Positions 2,878 through 63,786 of a stretch of DNA of 64,000 nucleotides are shown here, piece after piece. The translations under genes were made by a program, and so were the position numbers. The DNA is from Escherichia phage F2: sequence record NC_054913.1. One strand, written 5' to 3'. The notes beneath the pieces were generated by a model. The model made no database searches, was not told the DNA's origin, and saw nothing but the letters and a program-made list of their open reading frames with translations. Position 1 is the first letter of the stretch. Every line of letters begins with the position of its first letter.

Positions 2878-2911
2878 TTTACAAACACATGGATGTGTGA
2901 TACTATCATCC
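2877..2911 (+). promoter_or_regulatory. early sigma70-type promoter (GTTTAC, 18 nt, TACTAT) with flanking inverted repeat (PeSL-like)
   Basis: gtttac at 2877-2882 overlapping the alt stop codon, tactat at 2901-2906, arms ggatg/catcc around the -10. Confidence 0.55.
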
Positions 2912-3262: not shown

Positions 3263-4225
3263 TTATAGTCCTAAAACTCTTGACGCAGAATTCACCACAC
3301 CTGTCAATGTGTTTATATTAGACACACCTCCAGCAGTCCCACCTAATCTAGAAAGTCTTGATACTGCACTTCCTAGACCAGAATCATTCTGATTATTTCC
3401 AAACATTCCTGAAACACTACTAATAAGTCCTGATTCCAGCCATTCTAAAGCAGCCTGTCTATTTACAGCACCTGATTGCATAACGCGATAAGCAAATGTT
3501 ACATCAAAAACTGTTATCTGATTATCACCGTCATACGTTAACTCAGGAGAAGAGACACTAACAGGAATACATCCAGTGAACATGACAGCGGTATGTGGTA
3601 AACCATTTCGTGCATGTAAATTAACCTGAATATCTGCTTCGACGTCTTGTGGTAAAGCACGAAGACCTGTTACAGGGTCTTGGACTGAGTTTACCCAGTC
3701 TTGCATTGCTCTAAAGTTAGATGCTTCGGAATCCATTCTAAAGCTTATTACTAACGGGTCCATTTCACGGCCGGTAATTCGGATGTTCGGTGAGTTATAG
3801 TTGAAATCTGTTTCATAAGATAATCGGTTCTCAGGCATTTTTACAGAATAAATCATTAAACCTGTATTATTATATGCCATATTGAAGAAGTCTATCAGAT
3901 AAGATCCTACTGTGAACTCGCCTAACAAGCTTTGTACCGTACGTTGACTCATTGCTCCAATCAGATATTTACTTACACCTGATTTTCGAATTAATTTCTG
4001 TGTTCCTGCTGTAATCAGGGTTGTTACGCCCTGATTGATATCACCTTGAGTCAATCCTAGCCAATCAGAATCCAACCCTAAGTTATTATAAGCAAAACTA
4101 CCAATTGACGAAATTAGTGAAGATGATTTAGTCGACGGTGTAGTAGCAAATACACAACTAAACATATTGTTTCGTTGGAAATCTGCATTTATAGCTTGGT
4201 TATTAAATTCTTCTAAAGAGTACAT
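3263..4225 (-). CDS. 54: gp54 baseplate tail-tube initiator, 320 aa
   Basis: Length and synteny with T4 gene 54; overlaps gene 48 stop/start. Confidence 0.85.
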   Translation of the reverse strand: MYSLEEFNNQAINADFQRNNMFSCVFATTPSTKSSSLISSIGSFAYNNLGLDSDWLGLTQGDINQGVTTLITAGTQKLIRKSGVSKYLIGAMSQRTVQSLLGEFTVGSYLIDFFNMAYNNTGLMIYSVKMPENRLSYETDFNYNSPNIRITGREMDPLVISFRMDSEASNFRAMQDWVNSVQDPVTGLRALPQDVEADIQVNLHARNGLPHTAVMFTGCIPVSVSSPELTYDGDNQITVFDVTFAYRVMQSGAVNRQAALEWLESGLISSVSGMFGNNQNDSGLGSAVSRLSRLGGTAGGVSNINTLTGVVNSASRVLGL

Positions 4226-11336: not shown

Positions 11337-11504
11337 ATGTCAGATAAGATTTGTGTTGTCTGTAAAACTCCAATCGATTCTGCATTGGTTGTTGAAACAG
11401 ACAAAGGTCCAGCACATCCTGGTCCTTGTTATAATTATGTCCAACAAATGCCGGTTTCAGAAAGTTCAGAAGAGCAATTGAACGAAACCCAACTTTTACT
11501 ATAG
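11337..11504 (+). CDS. uvsY.-2-like small Cys-rich protein, 55 aa (below the ORF-track cut-off)
   Basis: ATG at 11337 preceded by AGGAGG; MSDKICVVCKTPIDS...; stop at 11502-11504. Confidence 0.6.
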   Translation: MSDKICVVCKTPIDSALVVETDKGPAHPGPCYNYVQQMPVSESSEEQLNETQLLL

Positions 11505-14993: not shown

Positions 14994-15200
14994 ATGGGAT
15001 TGATTATGAGAGTTGAAGTTGAAGTTTATACATTACATGAGGCGGGATTTTCATTCGTAGAAATTGCTCAAAAAATCGGTTTACAACCTAAAGAAGTTGG
15101 ATTACTATGGACTAAAGCCGAGACAGCTCGGTCAAAGTTTAAAGCAAAAGAAAAAGTTGTATACCGTAAACGTTTGATTAACAGAAAGGTGAAGAAATGA
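14994..15200 (+). CDS. small helix-turn-helix-like protein (24.3 position), 68 aa
   Basis: ORF with HTH-like segment FSFVEIAQKIGLQPKEVG; TGTATAAT extended -10 upstream. Confidence 0.55.
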   Translation: MGLIMRVEVEVYTLHEAGFSFVEIAQKIGLQPKEVGLLWTKAETARSKFKAKEKVVYRKRLINRKVKK

Positions 15201-15448
15201 GTTTTGCACAGGAATTAAGAGAAAGGGCCCTGGCCACTAAAGCCAATTTGTTGAAAGATTTTATTGCTAACTTCTCTGTGATGGCAGAGAAAGCCGCTGA
15301 CAAAGGCCAGACACAATTTACATACTATCCGTCAAAGAATGATTTAACTATCACCGAGCAAATCGGGGAGTGGTTCCGTGATAACGGCTTTCAGTACAAA
15401 ATTAATCACGACCAGCGTGATGGGCACTGGATAGAAATCAAGTTCTAG
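15197..15448 (+). CDS. hypothetical protein (24.2 position), 83 aa
   Basis: ATGA overlap with the preceding gene; synteny. Confidence 0.6.
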   Translation: MSFAQELRERALATKANLLKDFIANFSVMAEKAADKGQTQFTYYPSKNDLTITEQIGEWFRDNGFQYKINHDQRDGHWIEIKF

Positions 15449-16579: not shown

Positions 16580-16606
16580 AAAGGGACCGTAAGGTCCCTT
16601 TGTTTT
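16580..16606. terminator. bidirectional terminator between convergent rnlB and gene 24
   Basis: agggacc-gtaa-ggtccct flanked by an A-tract upstream and a T-tract downstream. Confidence 0.7.
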
Positions 16607-17888
16607 ATTCATCAATAATAATTTTTGGTAGCTTAACACCTAATAAAACAGACAAATCTGAACGTCCTGCCATTTTATCCATGTCCCCACCATCAATTAC
16701 TCTCGCTTCTTTTTCATCTTTTGCTACTGTGTAAGGATTCGCAGATAAAGCATATCTAACCAATAATCCGATAGATGGTTGCAAGCTTTCTGGATCAACT
16801 ACGACTTTAAATGCACCGACATGTTCCGGGTCATCTAAATCTACTCCTTCAGTGTATGGAGCATAAAAGATGGACCCCACAATTTCTTTTTCGCCGATAT
16901 TTTCTACAACACCCACAATAACATAATCTAACGGACTGTTGGTATCGCAGTAAAGAGGTAATCCATTTGCCAAGAATCCATAAGCATTTTGTGAAAGATA
17001 CTTGTCATCTTCTGGCTTATGTTTTAACCAACCAGAAGCAGCAAGAATAGCAGCTGCACGAGCTGAGGCTACACAAAACGTTGCAGTATAAGTTGTCTCT
17101 TTTTGAATGTGTGATACCATTTCACACACCATTCGATATAATGAACGACCTGCTTCTGGAGCGGATGCATAGCTCAAGTCAATAAATCCGGTGTCAGTAA
17201 TTCCAGTAACTTTATAACGTTTCGATACAGTAATTAAAGACTGAAGAATATCTTTATTAATTTCATCAGCCATTTCAGTAGCAAGCAAATCTTCTAAGAA
17301 GTTAGGGGCATCAAATCCATTCGCTTCCAAATCTTGCGCTAATTCAACCGTGAGGCCAGTTTTAAGTTTACGAGATTTGACTGAAGTTTGCCATTTATTA
17401 ATCTGGAATCTTGCATCAGAAATTTCGCTATCAGAGCTTTCAAATTTGCTTGTTACCGCTGCATCTGAAAATAACCGTACCTTTAAATGAACGACTGCAA
17501 TCTGAAGAGCTAATTCTAGATCACTTTCTTGAATATCTGCAAATGGTGTATCTTCTAACACTTTATAGACGATATTATTATATTTGAAAAAATCGCCTTT
17601 ATTTAGTGTGACTTTTGATTCTTCTGTGAGCTCAGTAATTTTTTCTCGGTCTACATATCCAACTTCACCAGCATAAGTAGCACCAGTTTTAAATGTGAAT
17701 TCGTTATCTGGGTTAAGATATTTGATACCATAAAAAGCAGCAACAGGTTGATTAGTTCTTTGTGTTGCTACAATGTCAGAATATATTAATTTAGTCGTAG
17801 CGCGAGTCAAAGCAACGAGATTTGGGCGACCGATTGAGTTGCTAGTAGACGTTGTAGATTCACGCAATAATTTTTGGATTTTACTCAT
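16605..17888 (-). CDS. 24: gp24 head vertex protein, 427 aa
   Basis: 427 aa as in T4; paralog of gp23; synteny. Confidence 0.9.
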   Translation of the reverse strand: MSKIQKLLRESTTSTSNSIGRPNLVALTRATTKLIYSDIVATQRTNQPVAAFYGIKYLNPDNEFTFKTGATYAGEVGYVDREKITELTEESKVTLNKGDFFKYNNIVYKVLEDTPFADIQESDLELALQIAVVHLKVRLFSDAAVTSKFESSDSEISDARFQINKWQTSVKSRKLKTGLTVELAQDLEANGFDAPNFLEDLLATEMADEINKDILQSLITVSKRYKVTGITDTGFIDLSYASAPEAGRSLYRMVCEMVSHIQKETTYTATFCVASARAAAILAASGWLKHKPEDDKYLSQNAYGFLANGLPLYCDTNSPLDYVIVGVVENIGEKEIVGSIFYAPYTEGVDLDDPEHVGAFKVVVDPESLQPSIGLLVRYALSANPYTVAKDEKEARVIDGGDMDKMAGRSDLSVLLGVKLPKIIIDE

Positions 17889-17932: not shown

Positions 17933-17962
17933 GTTTACACACAAAAAGTGTTGTGTTACTAT
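17933..17962 (+). promoter_or_regulatory. early sigma70-type promoter (GTTTAC, 18 nt, TACTAT)
   Basis: gtttac at 17933-17938 and tactat at 17957-17962; same -10 core gtgttactatagacc as the regB promoter. Confidence 0.55.
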
Positions 17963-17991
17963 AGACCTATCAAAACATGAGGAGATTAAAA

Positions 17992-18258
17992 ATGAACAAA
18001 TTAAACTTTATCCGTACCACACTTTCTAACCTTGACAAAGACATCAAAGCTCTGGTAGAAAAATTTGGTACCAATCCTAATGGTAATGCAGTTAATGCAT
18101 TGGTTAAGAAATACGAAGCCCTGGCTTATGAAACTGACTTCTGGTGGAACGGTGAATATTCTACCCATACCAAAGACAAATCTGGTAACTGGCTGAAAAT
18201 CCAAGAAAATCGTATTGACTTCCGTGATATCATCAACCGTCGTGTCAAAGCAGCGTAA
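17992..18258 (+). CDS. hypothetical early protein, 88 aa
   Basis: ATG at 17992 with GAGGAG RBS, downstream of the early promoter; no family recognised. Confidence 0.5.
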   Translation: MNKLNFIRTTLSNLDKDIKALVEKFGTNPNGNAVNALVKKYEALAYETDFWWNGEYSTHTKDKSGNWLKIQENRIDFRDIINRRVKAA

Positions 18259-52552: not shown

Positions 52553-52588
52553 GTTTACATAAGGATGATGGTGTGTTACTATCATCCT
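52553..52588 (+). promoter_or_regulatory. early promoter with inverted repeat (PeSL-like)
   Basis: gtttac at 52553-52558, 18 nt, tactat at 52577-52582; arms aggatgat at 52562-52569 and atcatcct at 52581-52588. Confidence 0.6.
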
Positions 52589-52616
52589 ATCAAATAAACG
52601 ACCTCAAGGAAATAAA

Positions 52617-52904
52617 ATGAAAACCTATAAAGAATTTATATCACCTGTTGCTAACGTTTCTACTCTGACCGAAGCAACCCTTACTTCCGAAGTTATTAAA
52701 GCAAATAAAGGACGTGAGGGTAAACCAATGATTAGTCTGGTTGACGGCGAAGAAGTAAAAGGTACTGTTTACTTAGGGGATGGATGGTCTGCTAAGAAAG
52801 ATGGCGCTACTATTGTTATCTCTCCGGCTGAAGAGACTGCACTGTTTAAAGCTAAGCATATTTCTGTAGCTCAGCTTAAAATTATTGCAAAAACTCTTCT
52901 GTAA
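52617..52904 (+). CDS. internal protein with capsid-targeting leader (IpI-like), 95 aa
   Basis: N-terminus MKTYKEFIS resembles the T4 internal-protein capsid-targeting sequence MKTYQEFIAE; position after 57B as for T4 ipI. Confidence 0.7.
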   Translation: MKTYKEFISPVANVSTLTEATLTSEVIKANKGREGKPMISLVDGEEVKGTVYLGDGWSAKKDGATIVISPAEETALFKAKHISVAQLKIIAKTLL

Positions 52905-52908
52905 AGTA

Positions 52909-52946
52909 GTTTACATGCTGATAGGACTATGTTATAGTAGTCCTAT
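52909..52946 (+). promoter_or_regulatory. early promoter with inverted repeat (PeSL-like)
   Basis: gtttac at 52909-52914, 18 nt, tatagt at 52933-52938; arms ataggacta at 52921-52929 and tagtcctat at 52938-52946. Confidence 0.6.
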
Positions 52947-52975
52947 CAAATCAAATGAGTAAATGGAGAAATAAA

Positions 52976-53161
52976 ATGAAACGCGCTGAACTGATTCGTA
53001 ATGTTGCTGTAGTAATTGCTTCAATGGCTTTTAGTTTTTCGATGTTTGTAGGATTCATTTGTGGACTACTGACAACAACAGAAAATTCTATCTCATTGGT
53101 AGTAGCATTTCTAATCGGTTTAATCGCTATCGTTATGGATAAAATTTCTAAAGGTGAATAG
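52976..53161 (+). CDS. small membrane protein with two predicted transmembrane segments, 61 aa
   Basis: ATG at 52976 with GGAG RBS; two hydrophobic stretches. Confidence 0.55.
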   Translation: MKRAELIRNVAVVIASMAFSFSMFVGFICGLLTTTENSISLVVAFLIGLIAIVMDKISKGE

Positions 53162-53162
53162 A

Positions 53163-53537
53163 ATGTATAAAGTGTACGCGGATTATCAGGCTAATCCATC
53201 TGAAAAGCCAGATTGCCAAATTGGATGGGCTCATGATACCCTGCTTGAAGCAGTAGATGCTGCTCAAAAATTAGGATATAGTTATGTGGATATTGTTCAA
53301 CCTGGTGGAACAGTTATTACTCTTGAAGAGTTTAATAATATTAAACCAAACTTTTTACTTTTTGCAGGTGATAATTATTATCCTCGTGGTGGATATGCTG
53401 ATTTAATCGCGAAAGCCGCTACTGAAGATGAATTACGCCAAATTATTGAAGACAATAAATCAAAACGATTTGGCGATAGTTTTGACTGGTGGCAAATCGT
53501 AAATGCCCATACACATACTATTGTTGATAAAGGTTAA
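53163..53537 (+). CDS. hypothetical protein, about 125 aa
   Basis: ORF with AGGTGA RBS; no motif recognised. Confidence 0.55.
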   Translation: MYKVYADYQANPSEKPDCQIGWAHDTLLEAVDAAQKLGYSYVDIVQPGGTVITLEEFNNIKPNFLLFAGDNYYPRGGYADLIAKAATEDELRQIIEDNKSKRFGDSFDWWQIVNAHTHTIVDKG

Positions 53538-53539
53538 TA

Positions 53540-53830
53540 ATGATTCTTTATGCGAAAGTATCATCCATTGAAAATGGATATAAATATGATCAAGAAGCAG
53601 CTAAAGCCTTGATTGATGATTATGGCATTTTAACATGTTTTGAAGTTGAAAAGGTTTACATCGACCGTTCGTCTTCACAGGTTAAATTACTCTGTGAAGA
53701 TGATAAATTTAACACAGTTAACTTTGATTTCTTTATTGAAACAGAAAAAGGTCCTCTTGAATATGATATTTTCAAGAATCCTTTGAAATTACGTTGCATT
53801 GAATATAATTACATTAATACGGTACGGTGA
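53540..53830 (+). CDS. hypothetical protein, 96 aa
   Basis: Tightly packed ORF; no motif recognised. Confidence 0.5.
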   Translation: MILYAKVSSIENGYKYDQEAAKALIDDYGILTCFEVEKVYIDRSSSQVKLLCEDDKFNTVNFDFFIETEKGPLEYDIFKNPLKLRCIEYNYINTVR

Positions 53831-53834
53831 TTAA

Positions 53835-54350
53835 ATGAATATTTGTTTAGGCAGTACAATTCCTAAAGGTTATGTAATTGATGTCACTACTTGGGAAAAT
53901 GACGGTGACAACTATAAAACCAAAACATTATTTGGTGTAGAAGAGCATGAGCTCCAACAGTTTAAATATCTCTTGAAGAAATTTAAGAGTCGTCATTCTA
54001 GTACTAAAGCTGAACGTTACTGTGGTAATACACTATTCAGTGATTGCTCGCTTTTAATCTATGAATACTTGGTTGAAGGACTGTTCTCAGACCAGCTTTA
54101 TCCAGAATTCATTAAAAAGGTCTTTGATATTGAAGTCGACCTCGGTAATAAATCTGAAGAAGACGAATCACGTGTATTTGACCTGTTCCGTGAGAATGGA
54201 TATTTGGTATCAGAAGGTCTCACTGATATTCTTGGCCATGCTTCCGAATATTATGATTATGATTTCTTGCGTGTAGTTGAACGTGTCGAATTTGCTTATA
54301 TTGAAGAAGAAATCGTTTTGCCAACCGTTAAAATGATTGATTTGCTTTAA
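53835..54350 (+). CDS. hypothetical protein, 171 aa
   Basis: ORF with GGTGA RBS; no motif recognised. Confidence 0.55.
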   Translation: MNICLGSTIPKGYVIDVTTWENDGDNYKTKTLFGVEEHELQQFKYLLKKFKSRHSSTKAERYCGNTLFSDCSLLIYEYLVEGLFSDQLYPEFIKKVFDIEVDLGNKSEEDESRVFDLFRENGYLVSEGLTDILGHASEYYDYDFLRVVERVEFAYIEEEIVLPTVKMIDLL

Positions 54351-54429
54351 GAATTATGTGTTATTATTAATTCATACCCTCTATTACCAAAGGTGCTCTA
54401 AAGTGCCTTTCATAATAGAAAGTTATTTA

Positions 54430-54504
54430 GGCCCTGTAGCTCAATGGGAGAGCTGTCAGCTCATAACTGATAGGTAGCTGGATCGAAACCAGCCAGGGCC
54501 ACCA
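54430..54504 (+). tRNA. tRNA with CAU anticodon (Met, or Ile if lysidine-modified), CCA encoded
   Basis: Manual cloverleaf: 7-bp acceptor GGCCCTG/CAGGGCC, D stem GCTC/GAGC, anticodon loop CTCATAA, T arm GCTGG-ATCGAAA-CCAGC, ACCA 3' end. Confidence 0.8.
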
Positions 54505-54510
54505 AACAAA

Positions 54511-54582
54511 TGGTGCATCGTATAAAGGTTATTACGGGGAGCTGTTAACTCCTTTATCTTGGTTCGAGTCCAAGTGCGCCAG
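54511..54582 (+). tRNA. tRNA-Asn (GUU)
   Basis: Manual cloverleaf: acceptor TGGTGCA/TGCGCCA with one G-U pair, anticodon stem GGGAG/CTCCT, loop CTGTTAA, T arm CTTGG-TTCGAGT-CCAAG; no CCA encoded. Confidence 0.7.
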
Positions 54583-54627
54583 TAATTTAAACGAAGTAAA
54601 TTAAGTGCTCTATCCAAATAATAAATA

Positions 54628-54646
54628 CTCCTATATTTTATAGGAG
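54628..54646 (+). promoter_or_regulatory. hairpin that sequesters the Shine-Dalgarno sequence of the downstream endonuclease gene
   Basis: ctcctat-atttt-ataggag; the 3' arm contains AGGAG 10 nt upstream of the ATG at 54657. Confidence 0.5.
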
Positions 54647-54656
54647 ATAATTGGTA

Positions 54657-55322
54657 ATGAGCATTTGTAAACATTGTAATATGGAATTTGATATTTCTAA
54701 TAAACCTAAAGGATGGATGGCTAACCACACTAGATGGTGTAAATCCAACCCTAAATTGGAATTGTATAAAGAAAGTTCTAAATCAGCCATTGCAGCAATG
54801 AATAAAGCACGTATAGCTTCAGGTAATTTAAACCAGTATGTTGTATCTAAAAAGACTGGTGTCCCTGTAGTAATTTCGGAAGAGACTAGACAAAAATTGT
54901 CAGCCGCTTCATTAGGTAGAGAACACTCTGAGGAATCTAGAATAAAAATATCTAATGCTCGGAAAAAATGGTTGAATGAAAACCCTGATAAACATCCTTG
55001 GAAGAAAAATACAAAATTTAAATCTGTGCCTTGTGAATTTTTGAAATCTAAATTAATAGAAAACGGAATTTCATTTATTGAAGAATACCAACCGGTTAAA
55101 AACCGAGCGTATTGCACGGATATTGCTTTAATAGATAAAAAGATTATTATTGAAGTTAATGGAAACCAACATTACTCCAATCCTAAGAAAAAGATTTTGG
55201 CCCCTTATTATAAAGAACGCCATGATATTATAAAATCATTAGGATGGGAAATATATGAACTTCATTATGCTGAAGTTTATAAAGAAGATATTGTAAATAA
55301 TTTAATTGCCTCTATAGTGTAA
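54657..55322 (+). CDS. free-standing endonuclease, non-GIY-YIG: N-terminal Cys/His cluster, NUMOD3-like repeats, C-terminal PD-(D/E)xK-like (Vsr/DUF559-type) domain; 221 aa
   Basis: CKHC...HTRWC; repeats SEETRQKLSAASLG and SEESRIKISNARKKW; C-terminal IIIEVNGNQH...KERHDIIKSLGWEIYEL; lies between tRNA-Asn and tRNA-Arg, last 5 codons overlap tRNA-Arg. Confidence 0.6.
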   Translation: MSICKHCNMEFDISNKPKGWMANHTRWCKSNPKLELYKESSKSAIAAMNKARIASGNLNQYVVSKKTGVPVVISEETRQKLSAASLGREHSEESRIKISNARKKWLNENPDKHPWKKNTKFKSVPCEFLKSKLIENGISFIEEYQPVKNRAYCTDIALIDKKIIIEVNGNQHYSNPKKKILAPYYKERHDIIKSLGWEIYELHYAEVYKEDIVNNLIASIV

Positions 55323-55383
55323 TGGATAGCATATAATCGTTCTAAGGTTAATGGTGAGAGTTCAAATCTTTCTAGAGGCACCA
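55308..55383 (+). tRNA. tRNA-Arg (UCU), CCA encoded
   Basis: Manual cloverleaf: acceptor GCCTCTA/TAGAGGC, anticodon loop GTTCTAA, T arm GAGAG-TTCAAAT-CTTTC, ACCA 3' end; T4 also encodes tRNA-Arg(UCU). Confidence 0.75.
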
Positions 55384-55401
55384 ACTTTAAGTGAGGAAAA
55401 T

Positions 55402-55746
55402 ATGAAAGGCAATATTTATCTGGTAGTTCATGATTTAACGTTTTATTTTAACGAACATGATACAGTTATTTCAGACCGATTGATTAATTTGTTATACCAA
55501 CATGCAGATTACATCTATGTTCAAAATGAATTCGGACATTGGAAGTTCATTAAAAATCGTTCTGGGTTAACTAGTTTTGAATACTTTGACCGTAAAGACC
55601 TTTTAAACGAAATCCCATTGCAACATCGGTTCCAGAAACGCGAATCATTATATTATTGCCGCCATATACCAAACGCAGAATGCGTTAATGAAGCGATTAA
55701 TCTATGGCGTCAGCGTCGAGAGCAAATTGATGATATGTCAAAATAA
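55402..55746 (+). CDS. hypothetical protein, 114 aa
   Basis: ATG at 55402 with GAGGA RBS; the ORF track extends into the tRNA. Confidence 0.5.
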   Translation: MKGNIYLVVHDLTFYFNEHDTVISDRLINLLYQHADYIYVQNEFGHWKFIKNRSGLTSFEYFDRKDLLNEIPLQHRFQKRESLYYCRHIPNAECVNEAINLWRQRREQIDDMSK

Positions 55747-56057
55747 GAAGCCGGGTCGCTACCGGCAAGTCGTCGGACTGATGTTCCCTGCGTAAGGACT
55801 GGTCTTAATAAATCTTTACGATTTGTTAATATCCCCTTACATCACAGCAGAAACGGCGCACCGAATTATCGATTCGAGGAAATATCTTTGCCGTAAGCCG
55901 AGTAGCGTTTTTGACGGAACGTTCGGATATGGTCGAGATATGGCCTTTTAAAAATATTGAGTAGCGTCAACTACTTAATAACCGGGTTCGAATCCCGGCG
56001 TTTCGTACAAACACTTGCCTTAGCAGGTGGAACCCCTACAAGGTTGCCGCAAGGCTT
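55747..56057 (+). ncRNA. putative small stable RNA locus (T4 rnaC/rnaD-like), boundaries not resolved
   Basis: About 310 nt with no credible ORF, downstream of tRNA-Arg; T-arm-like CCGGG-TTCGAAT-CCCGG at 55982-55998; several short hairpins; ends at a strong terminator. Confidence 0.4.
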
Positions 56058-56059
56058 AG

Positions 56060-56085
56060 CCCCGACCGAAAGGTCGGGGTTTTTT
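56060..56085 (+). terminator. rho-independent terminator (GNRA loop) ending the tRNA/stable-RNA transcription unit
   Basis: ccccgacc-gaaa-ggtcgggg followed by tttttt. Confidence 0.8.
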
Positions 56086-56219
56086 GATATCTAGGCCTTT
56101 CTGGACCTCTCTAGGCATCATTTAGTTTATACCCTTTATAATATATTATCCTATCTTTTAATTGCCCCTCCCCGCCCTAGAATTCCCTAAAAACTTTTTA
56201 AAAATTTTTTCACAAAACT

Positions 56220-56249
56220 GTTTACATCCTTGTTCTTCCATGGTACTAT
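56220..56249 (+). promoter_or_regulatory. early sigma70-type promoter
   Basis: gtttac at 56220-56225, 18 nt, tactat at 56244-56249. Confidence 0.55.
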
Positions 56250-56292
56250 ACAACTATCAACTACTGATACAGAAAACAACTTGGAGAATGAA

Positions 56293-56556
56293 ATGGATAA
56301 TTACGGTGAGCTGTTCAACTTCTTTATGAAATGCGTTTCAGAAGATTTCGGTCGTACAGTGAATGATATTAAAGTTATCGGTCCTGACCATCCGATGTTT
56401 GAAACTTACGCAGTAATGGGTAATGAAGATGGTCAGTGGTATACTGTAAAGGTTGTGATTAACATGTTCACAGCAGAAGGTTATGTTAAACTGTCTTCTA
56501 AAGTTTACCACGATAACGACGAAATCGCAGAAGAATATTTCAATAATATGAAATAA
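56293..56556 (+). CDS. hypothetical early protein, 87 aa
   Basis: ATG at 56293 with GGAGAA RBS. Confidence 0.5.
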   Translation: MDNYGELFNFFMKCVSEDFGRTVNDIKVIGPDHPMFETYAVMGNEDGQWYTVKVVINMFTAEGYVKLSSKVYHDNDEIAEEYFNNMK

Positions 56557-56592
56557 GTTTACACAGGCTCATGATTGAGATATTATGAGCCT
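56557..56592 (+). promoter_or_regulatory. early promoter with inverted repeat (PeSL-like)
   Basis: gtttac at 56557-56562, 18 nt, tattat at 56581-56586; arms aggctcat at 56565-56572 and atgagcct at 56585-56592. Confidence 0.6.
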
Positions 56593-56611
56593 ATAACTTG
56601 AGGAAACTGTT

Positions 56612-57142
56612 ATGTCTCTTTATACTGAACTGAATGAAACTTCCGAAAAATCTTTTGATGGTATTTTATCAATAATGCAAAAGCAGGTATTAGAACAGCT
56701 TAGTGAAGCCGCAAGCAACGGACATAAGGCTTGTCGAATCCCAAGCCCACATCGTCGCCTGTATGAACGCCCTCTTATTAATTGGCTAGAAAGCGAAGGT
56801 CTTACGGTTAAGATTTGTCCTGCCAAATTTGATGTTCCACGTATTCTTAATATTTACTGGGATAAACCGATTGAGAAACCGATTGAGAAAAGTGACCCTT
56901 GGGTTGTTAATGTAAAAACATGTGATAATGGATGCTCACTTGAGGTGTCTGCTGTAATTAAAGGCACTCACGGTGAAAAATCGTGGGGTTGGCCTGGTAA
57001 AGATAAAGAAATCGTGTTAAGTGTAAAAGCTACTAGTATTAGTACTCCTATAGCTAAAAGCATTATTAATGCTGCTATCGATGAAGCTGAACGAATTTGT
57101 AAAATTAAAAATAGTTTACATCTCTCAAATAATGGGATATAA
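56612..57142 (+). CDS. hypothetical protein with a PIEKPIEK tandem repeat, 176 aa
   Basis: ORF with GAGGAAA RBS; 12-bp unit ccgattgagaaa repeated twice at 56867-56890. Confidence 0.55.
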   Translation: MSLYTELNETSEKSFDGILSIMQKQVLEQLSEAASNGHKACRIPSPHRRLYERPLINWLESEGLTVKICPAKFDVPRILNIYWDKPIEKPIEKSDPWVVNVKTCDNGCSLEVSAVIKGTHGEKSWGWPGKDKEIVLSVKATSISTPIAKSIINAAIDEAERICKIKNSLHLSNNGI

Positions 57143-57143
57143 T
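57114..57143 (+). promoter_or_regulatory. early sigma70 promoter with consensus -10
   Basis: gtttac at 57114-57119, 18 nt, tataat at 57138-57143; lies within the 3' end of the preceding ORF. Confidence 0.6.
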
Positions 57144-57185
57144 TCTTCCGCAGATTTTAAATCTCAATTAACCTAAGGAAATACT

Positions 57186-57779
57186 ATGAACACACTGAAG
57201 AAAATTGTTGAGTTTATTCGCACTAAACTTGGTTCTGCTATGGCTAAAAATCTATCTGTCGAAGAACAGTATACTGCTGCAGCAGCAAAACTTCTTGATA
57301 AAATTAAAGACCTAAAAACTGCTTCTGTTAAATCTATTAATGAAGAAAAACGTATTCGTGAACTTGTTATCGAAAAGAATCGACAAGCCGAATCAAAAGA
57401 GCGTGAAATTCGCAAACTTCTTTCCGAAGGTCAAGATGTAACAATGCATGCTAAGCTCGGTTTACTATATCGTCGAACAGCTGAGCAGTTGACTACTAAA
57501 GCTGATGGTTATGCTGAAATGCGAATTGAAATCGCCAAGAAAGTAGTTGAGTTAGATGATGCTCGCCAAGAACTTGCAGTTAAATTGGAATATATCCGTG
57601 AAACTCGTGCGGCAAATGCCCTTGGAATTAGTACTGCTGATGATGTAGTTGAAATCGCAGCACTGACTAAGGTTGATATTGAAGATACTCTTGCTCGAGT
57701 TGAAACCTTTAACGGTAATATTTCCGGGGTTGAAACTACCTCTGCCGATGTTCAGGAATACATTAATTCTCTGAAATAA
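57186..57779 (+). CDS. coiled-coil protein, possibly PspA/IM30-like, 197 aa
   Basis: Long charged heptad-rich helices resembling PspA architecture; assignment by pattern only. Confidence 0.45.
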
Positions 57780-57783
57780 TGAT

Positions 57784-57801
57784 AAGGGGCTTCGGCCCCT
57801 T
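57784..57801 (+). terminator. UUCG-loop hairpin (terminator or RNA-stabilising element)
   Basis: aaggggc-ttcg-gcccctt; no clear U-tract. Confidence 0.4.
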
Positions 57802-57820
57802 ATACTTGGAGTAAATAGGA

Positions 57821-58435
57821 ATGAAAATGAAAATGCAAAGTGATTTCAATTCAATGTTTGAAGAGTTCCAAAGACAGGTTGATGTTCCAGACCAATTACT
57901 AAATGCTCTTAAACGTATGGCAGAAGGACGTAATTACTATTGGGGGTCTTCATATGAAACTGATGAAAGTCTTTCTGGAAGATTTTCTAGAGGTAAAAAG
58001 TCTTTAATACGTCCTGGAATACTCATTAACAGTATTGAATCAATTCATTCATTGACGTGTGATTTTGATGTTGAATTTACTGATTTCATTTCTCCTGAAT
58101 GGACGGTTTGTTATTTAAACGACGATTATGATTATCTTGGCGTTTATAGTTTAAGTGATGCATGGTTTAAACGTAATTTACAAAAGTCAAATTTGTTCTA
58201 TATTGATACTACGGTAAAATTTCAGGGAAAGAAATATTTCTTTACTCTTATAGTTGATTCTGAAACAAAATATGAAAATAAGCGTATTCTTAGTAAAAAG
58301 AATATCTTGACTATTGTTGATGATCTTTTTGATAAATTCGTGGAAAATCCTAATTTTGAAAGCGATTTATTACTAGAAAAATTTGTTAAGGAATGTAGAG
58401 AATATGTCAAAGCCATCACTATACCTTCCAAGTAA
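57821..58435 (+). CDS. hypothetical protein sharing a C-terminal FVKECRE tail with the downstream paralogs, 204 aa
   Basis: ORF; C-terminal codons contain the RBS of the next gene. Confidence 0.55.
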   Translation: MKMKMQSDFNSMFEEFQRQVDVPDQLLNALKRMAEGRNYYWGSSYETDESLSGRFSRGKKSLIRPGILINSIESIHSLTCDFDVEFTDFISPEWTVCYLNDDYDYLGVYSLSDAWFKRNLQKSNLFYIDTTVKFQGKKYFFTLIVDSETKYENKRILSKKNILTIVDDLFDKFVENPNFESDLLLEKFVKECREYVKAITIPSK

Positions 58436-58796
58436 ACCCGTGAAGTATGAACTAAAGCGTCAGCTAATTCCTACTGATGTATTAATAGGTCCTGTGGTAG
58501 CTGTATCATTTGTGATTCTGCTGATTGCTGGAATGGTTATAGACGTTATGACTGATATTGAATCTGGTGCAATATTTGGAGCAACACTAATTCTTCCATT
58601 AATAATTCCGCTTTTATTAGTACCTGTAAATTGGGTAGGATACTGGTATCAAGGAAGACATTATCGTAAACGCGTACGTGAGTGGAAAGCCCAGTGCAAA
58701 AAGATTAAAAAAGAACATCAGCTTAAACTTGCTGCGTATGAATTTGATGAAATTATGAAATTTGTTAAGGAATCACGATGCAAAAGCCAAAACTAA
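58404..58796 (+). CDS. small two-transmembrane protein, paralog 1 of 3, 130 aa
   Basis: ATG at 58404 with AAGGAA RBS inside the upstream gene; two hydrophobic helices, basic region, tail FVKESRCK. Confidence 0.6.
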   Translation: MSKPSLYLPSKPVKYELKRQLIPTDVLIGPVVAVSFVILLIAGMVIDVMTDIESGAIFGATLILPLIIPLLLVPVNWVGYWYQGRHYRKRVREWKAQCKKIKKEHQLKLAAYEFDEIMKFVKESRCKSQN

Positions 58797-59140
58797 ATAA
58801 AGTCAAATATTCGTTTCCTGAGGCACTATTAATTCTTGCTGTATCAGTATTTACAGCTCTTGCGGGTAGTCTTATTGGATTAATGATTGACTGTATTATT
58901 TTAAACATCGATGGTTCAGCAATTATAACAGAGGTTTGGAGTGAACTTCGTTTTACTATAGCGATTTCATTATTTTCATTCTTTGGTACCATGTTATATT
59001 TTCATTATGATAATTTTAAAATAAATTGGCAAAGAAAAAAGGATTACAAAATACAATTAAAAGAATATAATAACTACATGTCTTATATTGAAAATGAATC
59101 AATGAAAGAGTTTGTAAGTGATTGTAGGAAAATCAGATGA
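58778..59140 (+). CDS. small two-transmembrane protein, paralog 2 of 3, 120 aa
   Basis: N-terminus MQKPKL similar to paralog 1 (MSKPSL); two hydrophobic helices; tail FVSDCRKIR. Confidence 0.6.
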   Translation: MQKPKLNKVKYSFPEALLILAVSVFTALAGSLIGLMIDCIILNIDGSAIITEVWSELRFTIAISLFSFFGTMLYFHYDNFKINWQRKKDYKIQLKEYNNYMSYIENESMKEFVSDCRKIR

Positions 59141-59625
59141 TTTTAAAAACTCGCTGGTATGATTTAGATGATGGGGATGATGGCATTCCAGTTGATAGAG
59201 TTGACTGGAATGGCTGTTCCGAAGATATGAAAAATTTGCTGATTAGGGAGTTTAGAATGGGATATCAACCAGTTAAGCCATCTACTGCAACAGATGATAA
59301 ATTCGTGTGTATTCATAATGGTCGCGCTAAATTAACGAACGCTGATTGGTTCACAGATAAGATTATGATTCTGTGGTATATTATTAGTCTTCCTGTGACA
59401 TCATTCGTATTTTACTTTTTTATAAAAAATCCAATGGACAGAATAGGAGATTGGATTCTTTTAACCATACTTGTTAATATTTTTACAGCAGCAATATTAT
59501 CTGGGATATGGTACACGTTCATTGAAATGCCATGGCGGCTACGCAGACAACAAAAGATTTTTGATGAAAAGAAATATACTCAAAATTTAAATAACTTTAT
59601 CACTGAATGCAGGAAATTAAAATGA
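59137..59625 (+). CDS. small two-transmembrane protein, paralog 3 of 3, 162 aa
   Basis: ATGA overlap; two hydrophobic helices; tail FITECRKLK whose codons tgc agg aaa supply the nudE RBS. Confidence 0.6.
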   Translation: MILKTRWYDLDDGDDGIPVDRVDWNGCSEDMKNLLIREFRMGYQPVKPSTATDDKFVCIHNGRAKLTNADWFTDKIMILWYIISLPVTSFVFYFFIKNPMDRIGDWILLTILVNIFTAAILSGIWYTFIEMPWRLRRQQKIFDEKKYTQNLNNFITECRKLK

Positions 59626-60062
59626 AAACACTATCAGCTGGTATTATCTTTATGACCGAAGATAAAGATTTATTCATGGGACGGGTTACTGGTTCTCGTA
59701 AGCCTGGAATGATGGCACATCGCTGGGATATCCCAAAGGGCCGCGTAGAAAATTCTGATTTAAGCGCACTAGATGCAGCACGAAGAGAATGTTTAGAAGA
59801 GACTGGTTTTAGCAATTATAATCCAGACCTTCTAGAAGACCTAGGTGTATTTAAATATTCTAGTAATAAAGACTTACAGTTATTTTATTATACGATTCCA
59901 GTAGAGCATGAGATGTTTAGAAATTGCCATTGCGAGTCTTATTTTGAAAATAAAGATGGCGTTATGATTCCAGAGATGGACGCTTTTGCTCTTATTCCTC
60001 GTACTCAGTGGCAATATGTGATGGGTCCTTCACTTTACCGAATAATGAACAACCTCTTTTAA
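59622..60062 (+). CDS. nudE: NudE Nudix hydrolase (e.1), 146 aa
   Basis: Nudix box GRVENSDLSALDAARRECLEETGF; directly upstream of lysozyme as in T4. Confidence 0.85.
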   Translation: MKTLSAGIIFMTEDKDLFMGRVTGSRKPGMMAHRWDIPKGRVENSDLSALDAARRECLEETGFSNYNPDLLEDLGVFKYSSNKDLQLFYYTIPVEHEMFRNCHCESYFENKDGVMIPEMDAFALIPRTQWQYVMGPSLYRIMNNLF

Positions 60063-60593
<531 letters not shown>

Positions 60594-60597
60594 AGTT

Positions 60598-60637
60598 GTT
60601 TACTTTCTCCTAGAACTGTGATAGTATATTCACAGTT
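60598..60637 (+). promoter_or_regulatory. early promoter with inverted repeat (PeSL-like)
   Basis: gtttac at 60598-60603, 18 nt, tagtat at 60622-60627; arms aactgtga at 60614-60621 and tcacagtt at 60630-60637. Confidence 0.6.
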
Positions 60638-60670
60638 ACTAATTAAAATATTTACATTTAAAGGAAACAT

Positions 60671-61144
60671 ATGAAAACATATCAAGAATTTATTACTGAA
60701 GCAGCTATTAATTCTCAAATTATTGCTGAATCTTTTACTGATCTTTTGAAATTTAAAAAAGGACAGAAAATTACTGCTGTATTAGATGATGGTACAGAAG
60801 TTGAGATGGATGTACAGGGATATAATTATGCAGTAGATGGAAAACTGTATAATAAATCTCATGCTAAATTTGATTCATTTGATGATTTTGTTAATACAGT
60901 TGAAGATGAAAAAACTCGTCGATCCATTGCAACTGGTGATGCTAAGGTTCTTATGGCGCATGGGCATGAACGTATTCGCGCTAAACAGAATAAAATGGGT
61001 GAAGATAATTTCGCATTAGTTGGTTATCAATCTGGTAAACAAACTTATGGTTATCAGCGTACTGCTACCATGTATAATAAAAATGGTAAAATCGCTTTCG
61101 TGAATAGTAAAGGTTCTATTCAGTACGTTAAATCGTTCAAATAA
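60671..61144 (+). CDS. internal protein with capsid-targeting leader (IpII/IpIII-class variant), 157 aa
   Basis: N-terminus MKTYQEFITEA matches the T4 capsid-targeting sequence; position next to e as for T4 ipIII/ipII; length differs from T4 IpII (100 aa) and IpIII (194 aa). Confidence 0.7.
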   Translation: MKTYQEFITEAAINSQIIAESFTDLLKFKKGQKITAVLDDGTEVEMDVQGYNYAVDGKLYNKSHAKFDSFDDFVNTVEDEKTRRSIATGDAKVLMAHGHERIRAKQNKMGEDNFALVGYQSGKQTYGYQRTATMYNKNGKIAFVNSKGSIQYVKSFK

Positions 61145-61201
61145 CATGGGAACAACCTGGACCTCATGATTCTGTGAGGGATTCCCGCCAACCTGTAATA
61201 A

Positions 61202-61223
61202 GGTCGAGCCCAAGTGCGGTAAT
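61202..61223 (+). pseudogene. tRNA 3'-end remnant (T arm plus acceptor) related to tRNA-Asn
   Basis: ggtcgagcccaagtgcggtaat versus ggttcgagtccaagtgcgccagtaat at 54561-54586; no matching 5' half upstream. Confidence 0.45.
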
Positions 61224-61285
61224 GGGTAAATACAGAAATGGACAATTCATGCGCCATGGAATGGCCCAAATTTAGAGAGAATAAA

Positions 61286-61828
61286 ATGAGAACATTTTTA
61301 ACTGGTCCTTATCTATCCCTGATGAATGCTTTTACACACCATTCTGATGCTAGAGTAGAAGAAATTTGTAATAGTGGATTTTATGTACCTGATTCGTCGC
61401 ATTTATTTAAAGAATATTGTACACTTCGTTTAGATGGTGGCAGACAATCTGGTAAATCAACTGCAGTAACTAATTTTGCCGCTAATTGGTTGTATGATGG
61501 TGGAACAGTTATTGTTCTTTCTAATACTTCAGCTTACGCTAAAATTTCTGCGGGCCGCATTAAAAAAGAATTTTCTCGTTATTCTAGCGATGATATTCGA
61601 TTCCGTTTATTTACTGATTCTGTCCGTAGTTTTGTTGGTAATAGAGGTAGCAAGTTCAGAGGTTTATCGCTTTCTCGAATTTTGTATATAATCGATGAGC
61701 CTGTTAAATCTCCTGATATGGATAAAATTTACGATATTCATATTGAAACTGTGCACCACTGTTGCAATAGTAAATGCTGCATTGGTGGTATTACTCGTCC
61801 TCAATTTTTTGTGATTGGAATGCAATGA
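61286..61828 (+). CDS. P-loop NTPase-like hypothetical protein with C-terminal Cys cluster, 180 aa
   Basis: Walker A GGRQSGKST, Walker B-like ILYIIDEP, HHCCNSKCC; start set at the ATG at 61286. Confidence 0.5.
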   Translation: MRTFLTGPYLSLMNAFTHHSDARVEEICNSGFYVPDSSHLFKEYCTLRLDGGRQSGKSTAVTNFAANWLYDGGTVIVLSNTSAYAKISAGRIKKEFSRYSSDDIRFRLFTDSVRSFVGNRGSKFRGLSLSRILYIIDEPVKSPDMDKIYDIHIETVHHCCNSKCCIGGITRPQFFVIGMQ

Positions 61829-62133
61829 TGACCACTATTGAAGTTTTTGAGTATTGTTATAACAGTCCAGTATGCAATAAAAGGGCTCTTGTAGAAAATT
61901 ACGAGATTTACCATTTTAAACCTAAACGATATCGTTTGACTAAAGGTCCATTCGCAGGTCAGCAGGTTCTTTGTACTGCTCCTAATGCACGGCTAATGAA
62001 TAAAATTCCATATTTTACCATGGAATTTATTGATGGACCTTTTAAAGGATTAATTACGCAAAGTTTAATGGCATATGATTCTGAGCCATTTTTAATTAAA
62101 GAACAATCTTGGATAAATTTATTTTCTAATTGA
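61825..62133 (+). CDS. hypothetical protein, 102 aa
   Basis: ATGATG start overlapping the upstream gene; no motif recognised. Confidence 0.5.
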
Positions 62134-62140
62134 GGTTTAT

Positions 62141-62503
62141 ATGAAAGCATATCAAATTCTTGAAGGTGCACATAAAGGCACTATTTATTTTGAAGACGGT
62201 ATTCAAGCCCGGATTATTGTCTCTAAGACTTTTAAAGAAGACGATATTGTAGACCCGGAAATTTTCTACGGTTTGAATGCTCGTGAAATTGAAATTGAAC
62301 ATCAACCTAAAGTTAAAATTGAAGGTGGTCAACACCTGAACGTTAACGTTCTGCGTCGTGAAACTCTGGAAGATGCAGTTAAGCATCCTGAAAAATATCC
62401 GCAGCTGACCATCCGTGTATCTGGTTATGCAGTTCGCTTTAACTCTCTGACTCCGGAACAGCAGCGCGACGTTATCGCTCGCACCTTTACTGAGAGTCTA
62501 TAA
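62141..62503 (+). CDS. autonomous glycyl-radical cofactor (GrcA/YfiD-like), 120 aa
   Basis: C-terminal 60 aa carry the glycyl-radical motif RVSGYAV and end in TFTESL, matching E. coli GrcA as I recall it; T4 is reported to encode such a homolog (Y06I). Confidence 0.8.
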
Positions 62504-62727
62504 TGGCTAAATTGATTATAGAAGGGTCCGAAGATGTTTTAAAATGTTTTGCCGCCTGGTTTAGTTGCTCAGGCGAGCAATCATTCATTGAAGCATTTAG
62601 AACGGGTGATATTACTGGAAAATATCCGACAACTGATATCACTGTACGCGGATATGGTATTAATGAGCCTATCCAATTGGTTGAATATGACCTTGCCACC
62701 GATGAGGAAATTCCTTATGTCGATTGA
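62503..62727 (+). CDS. hypothetical protein, 74 aa
   Basis: TAATG overlap with the upstream gene. Confidence 0.5.
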   Translation: MAKLIIEGSEDVLKCFAAWFSCSGEQSFIEAFRTGDITGKYPTTDITVRGYGINEPIQLVEYDLATDEEIPYVD

Positions 62728-62983
62728 AGACATCAAAGGCTACAAGCCACATACCGATGATAAAATCAGTAAAGTGAACGCTATTAAAGACGCAGAAGTC
62801 CGTCTTGGATTGATGTTTGATGCTCTGATTGAAGAAGCATATATCTTGAAAGAAAATGAATCAGAGCAACAAACCAAAGAAGATATGGATGCAGTGCAGG
62901 CTCTTAAGTATGCTAAGCAACATCTAAAAGAAGCCAGCATGTGGGCATGCCGTGCGGTATTTCGACCAGAGGAAAAATACTAA
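62717..62983 (+). CDS. hypothetical protein, 88 aa
   Basis: ATG at 62717 with GAGGAA RBS; the ORF track extends upstream in frame. Confidence 0.5.
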
Positions 62984-63282
62984 TGGCTCAAATCCTATCA
63001 GGCTTTGGAACTCATTATGAAGCATCTCGACGCATAACTGAAAGCAATCCTTTTGGCCTTGTTCCGAAGCACAAGAAAATTCAAAGCCTTGATGACTTTG
63101 AGAATCGCCTATGGGCCCTCTTTAATGAGTACAAGGCATATCTGAAAGAAGACGCTGACGATTGTCTTGAAGAAGATGAGATTGCGTATTACGAACAACG
63201 CCTTGAACAGCTCAAGAACTTCCACCAGGTTCGTGACGAAGTATCTAAAGCAGTTAAAAAGTTAATTCCTTTCAAAGAGTAG
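62983..63282 (+). CDS. hypothetical protein, 99 aa
   Basis: TAATG overlap; acidic helical protein. Confidence 0.5.
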
Positions 63283-63330
63283 TTTACTTCTCCTCTAGTT
63301 GTGTTACTATAGACCTGTCAACTAGAGGAG
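63282..63330 (+). promoter_or_regulatory. early promoter embedded in a 12-bp-arm inverted repeat (PeSL-like); the 3' arm carries the regB Shine-Dalgarno
   Basis: gtttac at 63282-63287, 17 nt, tactat at 63305-63310; arms ctcctctagttg at 63290-63301 and caactagaggag at 63319-63330. Confidence 0.65.
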
Positions 63331-63339
63331 AAATCAAAA

Positions 63340-63786
63340 ATGACTATCAATTCTGACGTTTTTATCCGCCGTAATAAACTCCGTCGAATCTTTGAAACGG
63401 AGTTCCGCAAAATAAATGCCGGTATAAAAGATGCTGCAAAGTCTCTTGGACTACCAGGCTTTCATATCAAGTATTCTCAACATCTCTTAGATCGTGCTAT
63501 CCAGAGAGAAATAGATGAGAACTACGTTTTTGAATTATTTCGTAAAGTAAAAAATCATGTTAAAGAAGTTGCAGAATTTTTATCAATGCCGGCACGTCCA
63601 GATGTTGATGAAGATTTTGTCGAAGGTGTCGAATATCGTCCAGGCCGTTTAGAAATAACTGATGGAAATCTTTGGCTAGGACTTACAGTTTGTCGCGAAA
63701 ATCCAGCATTCATTCAATGCAGAATGGCTATTATTAACAGTAAACGACTACCAGGAAAAGCTTCTAAAGCAGTGATTAAAATCTAG
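63340..63786 (+). CDS. regB: RegB sequence-specific endoribonuclease, 148 aa
   Basis: Recognisably T4 RegB (MTINSDVFIRRNKLRR...CRMAIINSKRLPGKASKAVIKI). Confidence 0.85.
   Translation: MTINSDVFIRRNKLRRIFETEFRKINAGIKDAAKSLGLPGFHIKYSQHLLDRAIQREIDENYVFELFRKVKNHVKEVAEFLSMPARPDVDEDFVEGVEYRPGRLEITDGNLWLGLTVCRENPAFIQCRMAIINSKRLPGKASKAVIKI

Follow-up and report, generated by a model that had tools for sequence, protein, structure and literature searches.

Promoter-early stem-loop (PeSL) cassettes have been described in T4-type phages as short units composed of a stop codon, an A/T-rich stretch, a strong early promoter, a stem-loop, a Shine-Dalgarno sequence and an ATG (Arbiol et al. 2010, PMC2839356; Comeau et al. 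2014, PMC4122927). They are concentrated in hyperplastic regions beside variable genes, at indel sites (PMC2839356), and in RB49 and phi1 the commonest position of the stem-loop is between or over the promoter boxes. PeSL-like elements with AT-rich, variable stems have also been noted on T4 early promoters, at both internal protein (IP) loci of T-even phages (PMC2839356, PMC4122927, crediting Repoila et al. 1994). All of these traits recur in the stretch studied here, 64,000 nt of Escherichia phage F2 (NC_054913.1; the window), and both IP loci lie within its span 52553-63330. A first-pass annotation had likened the early promoters of this span to PeSL cassettes, and the likeness is borne out: promoter and stem-loop together occupy the space between a stop codon and the next Shine-Dalgarno sequence, in a hyperplastic region and at breakpoints of homology. 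The feature is thus of a known kind: T4-type PeSL-like cassettes were reported in 2010 and again in 2014, and a precursor for the IP loci dates from 1994.

The window nevertheless differs from the published examples in several respects. The stems of RB49 are of the GGGG...CCCC type, unlike those of the window. In PST, according to the figure legend, the stem-loops sit just upstream of the promoter, whereas those of the window enclose the -10 element. Terminator activity and mini-circles have been shown for RB49 and phi1 only. The stem-loop that characterizes a PeSL is present at 5 of the 10 promoters of the window and absent from those at 56220, 57114, 15079, 17933 and 2877. The portions of the two PeSL papers available to us separate out neither a class that masks the Shine-Dalgarno sequence nor a link to abutting genes.

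Two further bodies of work on T4 bear on these cassettes. T4 early promoters combine an A/T-rich UP-like region, a -35 element, TGn and a -10 element with conserved start-site positions (CCTATCAA) (Hinton 2010, PMC2988021), and those of the window share this design and the same gene junctions; the term 'inverted repeat' does not occur in that review, by a text search. Inhibitory structures at translation starts have been listed only for e, soc, 49 and I-TevI, whose late promoters lie inside the hairpin (PMC3014915). There, as proposed below for regB, the Shine-Dalgarno sequence is sequestered in the long RNA, while RNA from the internal promoter is free of the 5' arm and can be translated. The internal promoter of those genes is, however, a late one (TATAAATA), so that translation is delayed, whereas at regB (and at denV of T4) it is early and translation would be limited to the first minutes. 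Neither regB nor denV appears in that list (PMC3014915). An early promoter within a Shine-Dalgarno-masking hairpin at regB or denV was not found described in the portions of the literature available to us, and older sequence papers may mention it; Valerie 1986 reportedly noted a stem-loop ahead of regB.

Promoters, repeats and their neighbours

The 52.4-63.4 kb stretch matched more than 1000 genomes of Tequatrovirus and related phages, the best full-length match being about 90% identical in a mosaic pattern, and by these matches the window is from a Tequatrovirus, a T4-like phage. As the region is collinear with the T4 reverse strand from gene 57B to vs, the + strand of the window is the early-transcription strand. 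All nine modules listed previously (GTTTAC, 17-18 nt, TAnnnT) were recovered at the positions given for them. The strict pattern GTTTAC-N16-19-TANTAT matched eight times in the window, always on the + strand, where 0.24 matches were expected, and 0 of 100 shuffled sequences reached eight. The promoters at 52909 (TATAGT) and 57114 (TATAAT) are present though they fall outside this pattern, and a tenth good site, at 15079, had been missing from the list. A match at 3689, opposite a - strand gene, is probably due to chance. Between 17933 and 52553, the late-gene block, no GTTTAC-type site was found, while seven sites fall within 10.8 kb of the ipI-tRNA-e-regB region. TGn immediately precedes the -10 element in 7 of the 10 sites, and A+T makes up 60-85% of the 40 nt upstream.

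In the T4 record, a GTTTAC module is found at each corresponding junction, for ipI, trna.4, e.8, e.7, e.6, ipIII and regB. These are counterparts by position; the T4 GenBank/RefSeq records carry no promoter features, and a literature search turned up no genome-wide study of T4 start sites. Relatives were sampled as about 20 kb around the lysozyme gene e from 22 T4-like IMG/VR contigs, together with 16 regB loci, the window and T4. Across the 24 T4-like sources, the early strand carried 167 GTTTAC-N17/18-TAnnnT sites and the opposite strand 8. The sites of the window match the T4 design (PMC2988021) and fit the PeSL consensus of PST and T4, TTTACW-N17-TAYWAT (PMC4122927). With their positional counterparts in T4, these matches agree with the earlier reading of the sites as early promoters; they are putative sigma-70 'early' promoters that would drive short early genes on the + strand, activity and start sites being read from the sequence.

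Five promoters carry perfect inverted repeats that enclose or overlap the -10 element, as had been reported (Table 1), although the range given for the arms, 8-12 bp, was too narrow, those at regB reaching 14 bp. Arms of at least 8 bp have a probability of 0.05 in a random 75-mer of the window, so that their presence in 5 of 10 promoters is far above chance. The arm sequence is different at each site, as first noted. The 5-bp arms reported at 2877 do exist but are no longer than chance would give (P = 0.79 for 5 bp or more), and no repeat surrounds the -10 element at 56220, 57114, 15079 or 17933. When the read-through RNA was folded, z was -3.2 at 52553, -3.7 at 52909, -3.2 at 56557, -1.35 at 60598 and -4.2 at 63282, and it was near 0 when four promoters without a repeat were folded. 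At the five repeat-bearing sites a stop codon lies 0-14 nt 5' of the -35 element, the upstream 40 nt are 62-75% A+T, and a Shine-Dalgarno sequence and ATG follow 20-45 nt 3' of the -10 element. The stop codon had been said to overlap several -35 boxes; it does so at 63282 and 2877, where TAG has a base in common with the -35 element (TAG|TTTAC), and not at the other sites. At 56557 TAA abuts the -35 element with no shared base, and the TAG preceding TTTAC at 52909 and 57114 is out of frame, the real stops being TAA at 52902-52904 and TAA at 57140-57142, the latter inside the -10 element.

The same architecture is common among relatives. The 167 early-strand sites collapse to 147 unique cassettes, 77 of which (52%) form at least 7 Watson-Crick pairs around the -10 element, compared with 136 of 1499 random segments (9%). 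A chance origin of the repeats was rejected on this comparison, on the promoter enrichment and on the arm-length null. Perfect arms of at least 7 bp occur in 44% of native cassettes and in 4.6% of chimeras built from unrelated halves; the complementarity is therefore cassette-specific and does not come from the shared promoter consensus, a by-product origin that the chimera test rejects. A common protein operator was likewise rejected, as the arms differ at every site.

Presence of a repeat follows the position of the promoter relative to its upstream gene. Arms of at least 7 bp were found in 65% of 96 promoters abutting a co-directional open reading frame (ORF) and in 6% of 49 others (Fisher p = 2e-12), counts that are not phylogenetically independent; by sequence cluster the association is 59% of 54 versus 7% of 27 (p = 4e-6). 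Within the window, the promoters at 56220, which follows a true terminator (56058-56081), and at 17933, which follows an ORF of opposite orientation, are both repeat-less. As the terminator leaves no co-directional read-through into 56220, the absence of a repeat there is consistent with the association.

Pairing is also maintained while sequence changes. T4 has cassettes at the matching ipI, trna.4, e.7, e.6, ipIII and regB junctions, with arm sequences unlike those of the window, and further ones at ipII (14 bp) and denV (10 bp). At the ipI promoter, the counterpart of 52553, the T4 arms are TGATGAGGTA/TACCTCATCA. At the counterpart of 60598 they are AATTGTGA/TCACAATT, and the relative L070 is intermediate with AATTGTGA/TCACAGTT; one pair of this ipIII cassette is T-A in T4, T.G in L070 and C-G in the window. 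Among eight orthologs of the e.7 cassette 96% of cells are paired and two pairs are altered on both sides, a pair count that is weak by itself, 54 of 500 shuffles having matched the observed percentage paired and covariation score. The loop-proximal arms of regB leaders differ among five lineages and are complementary in all; these class B pairs (see below) were compared by hand, anchored on CTCC/GGAG, because a MAFFT alignment of 14 leaders put the arms out of register. Related genomes thus retain the pairing while the arm sequences change, and the repeats are conserved as units. Within close clusters, the proportion of variable sites is 6.3% in the arms, 10% elsewhere in the loop and spacer, and 20% in the downstream sequence.

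Table 1. Early promoters of the window with their inverted repeats, and the intrinsic terminator upstream of 56220
Feature	Span	Strand	Promoter elements	5' arm	3' arm	Remarks
Early promoter before ipI-type gene (52617-52904)	52553-52588	+	-35 52553-52558; -10 TACTAT 52577-52582	AGGATGAT (52562-52569)	ATCATCCT (52581-52588)	Class A; perfect, 8 bp; read-through fold -17.8 kcal/mol
Early promoter before trna.4-like gene (52976-53161)	52909-52948	+	-10 TATAGT 52933-52938	TGATAGGACTA (52919-52929)	TAGTCCTATCA (52938-52948)	Class A; perfect, 11 bp; loop 8 nt
Canonical intrinsic terminator	56058-56081	+				10-bp GC-rich stem and T run; ends tRNA/small-RNA unit upstream of 56220
Early promoter before e.8 homolog (56293-56556)	56220-56249	+	TGG-TACTAT			No inverted repeat; fold z = -0.4
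Early promoter abutting e.8 TAA	56557-56594	+	-10 TATTAT 56581-56586	AGGCTCAT (56565-56572)	ATGAGCCT (56585-56592)	Class A; perfect, 8 bp; extendable to 10 pairs with one C.A mismatch
Early promoter before e.6 homolog (57186-57779)	57114-57143	+	-10 TATAAT			No repeat; fold z = -0.25
Early promoter after lysozyme gene e, before internal virion protein gene	60598-60637	+	-10 TAGTAT 60622-60627, in loop	AACTGTGA (60614-60621)	TCACAGTT (60630-60637)	Class A; perfect, 8 bp
regB early promoter	63282-63342	+	-35 63282-63287 (G common with upstream TAG stop); -10 TACTAT 63305-63310; ATG 63340	TTCTCCTCTAGTTG (63288-63301, anti-Shine-Dalgarno)	CAACTAGAGGAGAA (63319-63332)	Class B; perfect, 14 bp; Shine-Dalgarno GAGGAG 63325-63330
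Early promoter at Alt-like gene end	2877-2911	+		GGATG	CATCC	5 bp, chance level; fold z = 0.07
Promoter-like GTTTAC-N18-TACTAT	15079-15108	+	-10 TACTAT			About 90 nt before ORF 15197-15448; no repeat around -10
Early promoter before ORF 17977-18258	17933-17962	+				6-bp repeat in spacer only, none around -10; fold z = 0.19

Two hairpin classes and the regB leader

The first-pass annotation drew no distinction between hairpins, which fall into two classes. In class A, represented in the window by 52553, 52909, 56557 and 60598, a loop of 6-12 nt holds the -10 element, and the 3' arm begins at or just after that element and spans the conserved start-site region (nnnCCTATCA), so that promoter-started RNA has essentially neither arm. 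In class B, represented by 63282, the 5' arm, (A/T)TCTCCTnnn, directly follows the -35 element, the 3' arm, nnnAGGAGA(A/T), is the Shine-Dalgarno sequence, and the loop of 17-32 nt contains the -10 element and the start site. Class B cassettes precede regB in 7 of 10 lineages, down to 56% protein identity, and denV in T4 and several relatives.

The regB gene of the window (63340-63786; phrog_1323, endoribonuclease, E = 6e-73) lies downstream of 63282, and the 3' arm, as had been pointed out, contains its Shine-Dalgarno sequence, which is 9 nt ahead of the ATG. The predicted start, near 63317, is downstream of the 5' arm, whose last base is 63301. The further suggestion that read-through RNA would be translationally masked agrees with the folding model. 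The read-through leader is predicted to fold at -21.6 kcal/mol (z = -4.2) with a probability of 0.001 that GGAG is unpaired, and the promoter-started leader at about -2 to -3 kcal/mol (-2.1 kcal/mol for the short leader alone), where the probability for GGAG is 0.36. Among six class B cassettes the corresponding probability was at most 0.001 in RNA starting 120 nt upstream and 0.3-0.57 in RNA from the predicted start.

These predictions fit what is known of regB. Its promoter is typical of the early ones and is shut off after 2-3 min, and the gene is tightly controlled (PMC3014915). It is also autoregulated: RegB, an enzyme that secondary structure inhibits (PMC1702504), cleaves the Shine-Dalgarno sequence of regB (PMC3014915). 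The window resembles the autoregulated gene in its GGAG Shine-Dalgarno sequence, its early promoter and the tight RegB control. The proposed hairpin differs in that it would act on read-through RNA, protecting GGAG from RegB rather than exposing it.

Not every relative has the class B cassette at regB. In L097 and L098, regB has a GTGTAC variant of the -35 element and no repeat, and in L086 (about 14191) and L088 (about 13764) it has a class A hairpin that leaves the Shine-Dalgarno sequence free. The lysozyme leader of the window (60062-60100) retains the classic T4 hairpin (-16.2 kcal/mol, z = -4.1). Its 3' arm contains the Shine-Dalgarno sequence and its 5' arm and loop contain two TATAAATA late-promoter motifs, an arrangement known to block translation of the early e transcript.

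The functional effects proposed for the hairpins are all inferred from sequence. A promoter pressed against the end of a co-directional gene would be embedded in a cassette-specific inverted repeat whose arms occupy positions that the polymerase does not read, namely the spacer together with either the discriminator and start-site region or the leader. Where the stop codon touches the -35 element, the only freely variable positions would be the spacer and the region from the -10 element to the Shine-Dalgarno sequence; the 5' arm would thus lie in the spacer and be absent from the promoter's own transcript. As the 5' arm is upstream of the start site, the hairpin should exist only in read-through RNA and never in RNA from its own promoter. 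In read-through RNA, the class A stem of 8-11 bp would mark where the upstream cistron ends, possibly as a barrier, a stabilizer or a weak attenuator. With class B, read-through RNA would be closed to ribosomes, and probably also to RegB, while RNA from the regB promoter would be open, which would confine RegB synthesis to the few minutes in which the early promoter fires.

Possible cassette exchange and competing explanations

The first-pass annotation had asked whether such cassettes mark module breakpoints across related genomes, and homology breakpoints do cluster at them. Of 209 endpoints of homology with T4 and 22 other relatives, 65 (31%) are located in the cassette zones, which account for 6.9% of the length, or 9.3 per cassette zone compared with 3.15 per other gene junction; the 60598 zone alone holds 18. 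Homology to relatives restarts at 52938/52965, immediately 3' of the 52909 cassette; homology to T4 and relatives stops at 56563-56614, at the 56557 cassette, and that to relatives resumes at 57153-57179, 3' of 57114. The gene bodies replaced relative to T4 (52640-52965, 56612-57142 and 60702-61148) all adjoin cassettes. The regB cassette of the window is 84% identical to the T4 denV cassette and 70% identical to the T4 regB cassette, which suggests that cassettes move between loci. As short conserved linkers between variable genes, they may serve as module-exchange junctions, as already proposed for PeSLs.

We consider it likely that the cassettes are T4-type early promoters which, where they abut co-directional genes, are built into hairpins specific to read-through RNA, in two classes, and which act as exchange junctions. 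The anatomy and enrichment of the cassettes, the pairing kept despite sequence change, the link to abutting genes, the predicted folding and the clustering of breakpoints are established by the comparisons above. An RNA role is favoured, most strongly by how class B is designed and by the association with co-directional upstream genes.

Several observations weigh against this interpretation. Comparisons chosen to tell constraint on RNA from constraint on DNA came out neutral. Sense and antisense strands fold equally well (-13.4 versus -13.0 kcal/mol, p = 0.56), and interruptions of the arms are G.T in 23 cases and A.C in 20 (10 versus 12 by cluster), where selection on RNA would favour G.U. 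Close clusters show arm mismatches of all kinds and no compensated pairs, so some of the 'compensatory' differences between distant relatives may be swaps of whole cassettes. The promoter at 57114 abuts a co-directional gene and yet has no repeat, and the abutting-gene counts carry the phylogenetic dependence mentioned above. Breakpoints also occur at cassette-free junctions, for example 57821 and 59622, and regB lacks the class B cassette in L097/L098, L086/L088 and L017. Finally, class A hairpins have no U tract, so the terminator function of the GC-rich RB49 stem-loop (PMC2839356) is not transferable to them.

The strand symmetry and the similar frequencies of G.T and A.C would be expected if the repeats acted in DNA only, as palindromic linkers for recombination through hairpins, cruciforms or shared homology, in the manner of PeSL shuffling with mini-circles. 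The clustering of breakpoints at cassettes and the exchange of cassettes between loci point the same way, and formation of mini-circles by PeSL recombination has been shown in RB49 and phi1 (PMC2839356). We nevertheless regard a role confined to DNA as unlikely. Recombination needs shared sequence, but the arms are the cassette-specific part, and the conserved -35, -10 and start regions would suffice. Moreover, the class B pairing of Shine-Dalgarno and anti-Shine-Dalgarno sequences, the latter upstream of the start site, recurs in several lineages and at two genes and is meaningful only in RNA.

The position of the repeats directly after stop codons, and the finding that one RB49 PeSL stem-loop lowered lacZ expression to an extent similar to that of the rrnB T1 terminator (PMC2839356), raise the question of whether the hairpins are genuine terminators, each gene being expressed from its own promoter only. 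No T run follows any of the five hairpins of the window (0/5), and a terminator scan that detects 56058-56081 misses all five; canonical intrinsic terminators were rejected on the lack of this U/T tract. The stems are also AT-rich and 8-11 bp long, and efficient termination would make the class B masking of read-through RNA pointless, so that we give genuine termination a very small chance.

A neutral origin is similarly improbable. Quasi-palindromes can be corrected by template switching during replication, a process that Ripley's work reportedly described for T4, and the repeats could be a mutational by-product of it. Such correction would give coordinated changes on both arms without selection, and would fit the many perfect arms and the mismatches without G.U preference. 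It leaves unexplained the 65% versus 6% contrast, the invariable enclosure of the -10 element and the recurrent use of the Shine-Dalgarno sequence as the 3' arm.

The enclosure of the -10 element, which lies in the loop or between the arms, is what would be expected if the repeats tuned the promoter as DNA, by aiding melting, by replacing a weak UP element over coding DNA or by providing a target for early shut-off. Abutting promoters have coding sequence at the UP position, which could confound the abutting-gene association, and how early promoters are shut off is still said not to be understood (PMC3014915, PMC2988021). However, near-consensus promoters without a repeat exist (56220 and 17933), that at 56220 being near-identical to the T4 site at 70696, and the arms differ everywhere and offer no common protein site. 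We know of no precedent for such tuning in sigma-70 promoters, and we place little credence in it for the cassettes. Least probable of all is that extrusion of the hairpin in DNA, or its recognition by a phage structure-specific protein, makes it a cis-element for the abrupt shut-off of T4 early promoters: the strand-symmetry tests are neutral on this and the -10 element is always in the loop or between the arms, but half of the promoters are repeat-less, the repeat tracks the abutting upstream gene, and class B is sensible only in RNA.

Neighbouring features and significance

The genes around the cassettes include those of two internal virion proteins downstream of flagged sites, at 52617-52904 (phrog_4363) and 60671-61144 (phrog_3155). 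The promoter at 57114 lies inside the 3' end of gene 56612-57142 (phrog_6869, 176 amino acids, function unknown), which replaces T4 e.7 between two early promoters. In T4 itself (NC_000866, about 70345; position 11346 in our extract L001), the 5' arm of the e.7 repeat contains an N (ATAGGCTNAT), for which C is predicted by the 3' arm (ATGAGCCTAT) and by 8 of 8 relatives. After gene e, the internal-protein gene start overlaps the e stop (…TATGA…) with no cassette between them in L020-L023 and L025-L032; as many relatives are of this kind, the post-e cassette is confined to the T4 subgroup. Upstream of 2877, the gene at 790-2877 encodes an Alt-like ADP-ribosyltransferase (Pfam ADPrib_exo_Tox, E = 6e-28), and the G of its TAG stop also belongs to the -35 element. 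The ORF at 16605-17888, on the - strand immediately upstream of 17933, we take from the map to be gene 24.

The tRNA cluster (54430-55383) contains three tRNAs (Met-CAT, Asn-GTT and Arg-TCT), where T4 has eight at the same place. An ORF among them (54657-55322) gave weak matches to DUF559, just over the Pfam cut-off, and RAP, just under it, resembling a Vsr-like nuclease; it had no GIY-YIG match, whereas T4 segB is a GIY-YIG protein. Directly after the e.6 homolog lies a GC-rich hairpin (57782-57803, AAGGGGCTTCGGCCCCTT), called on the - strand by the terminator scan, and many homology endpoints fall there, at 57795-57811, with no promoter cassette. About 140 nt of non-coding sequence after the internal-protein gene (61145-61285) align to the 5' coding part of T4 vs.8, the vs.8 homolog of the window (61286-61828) being correspondingly shorter than in T4; this sequence showed no significant fold (z = 0.6) and no tRNA.

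As a discovery the cassettes have limited weight, T4-type early promoters being textbook material and the cassettes already published. The analysis refines the published description in three ways. The hairpin uses only those parts of the promoter that are free in sequence, its 5' arm always lying upstream of the start, which would make it specific to read-through RNA; it is almost confined to promoters that abut a co-directional gene; and the masking subclass at regB and denV would be the counterpart, opposite in timing, of the well-known late-promoter switch at e, soc, 49 and I-TevI. For annotators of the many new T4-like genomes, the cassettes are useful landmarks of early transcription units and of module boundaries, and masking at regB and denV offers a simple, testable reason why RegB would be made only in the first minutes of infection.

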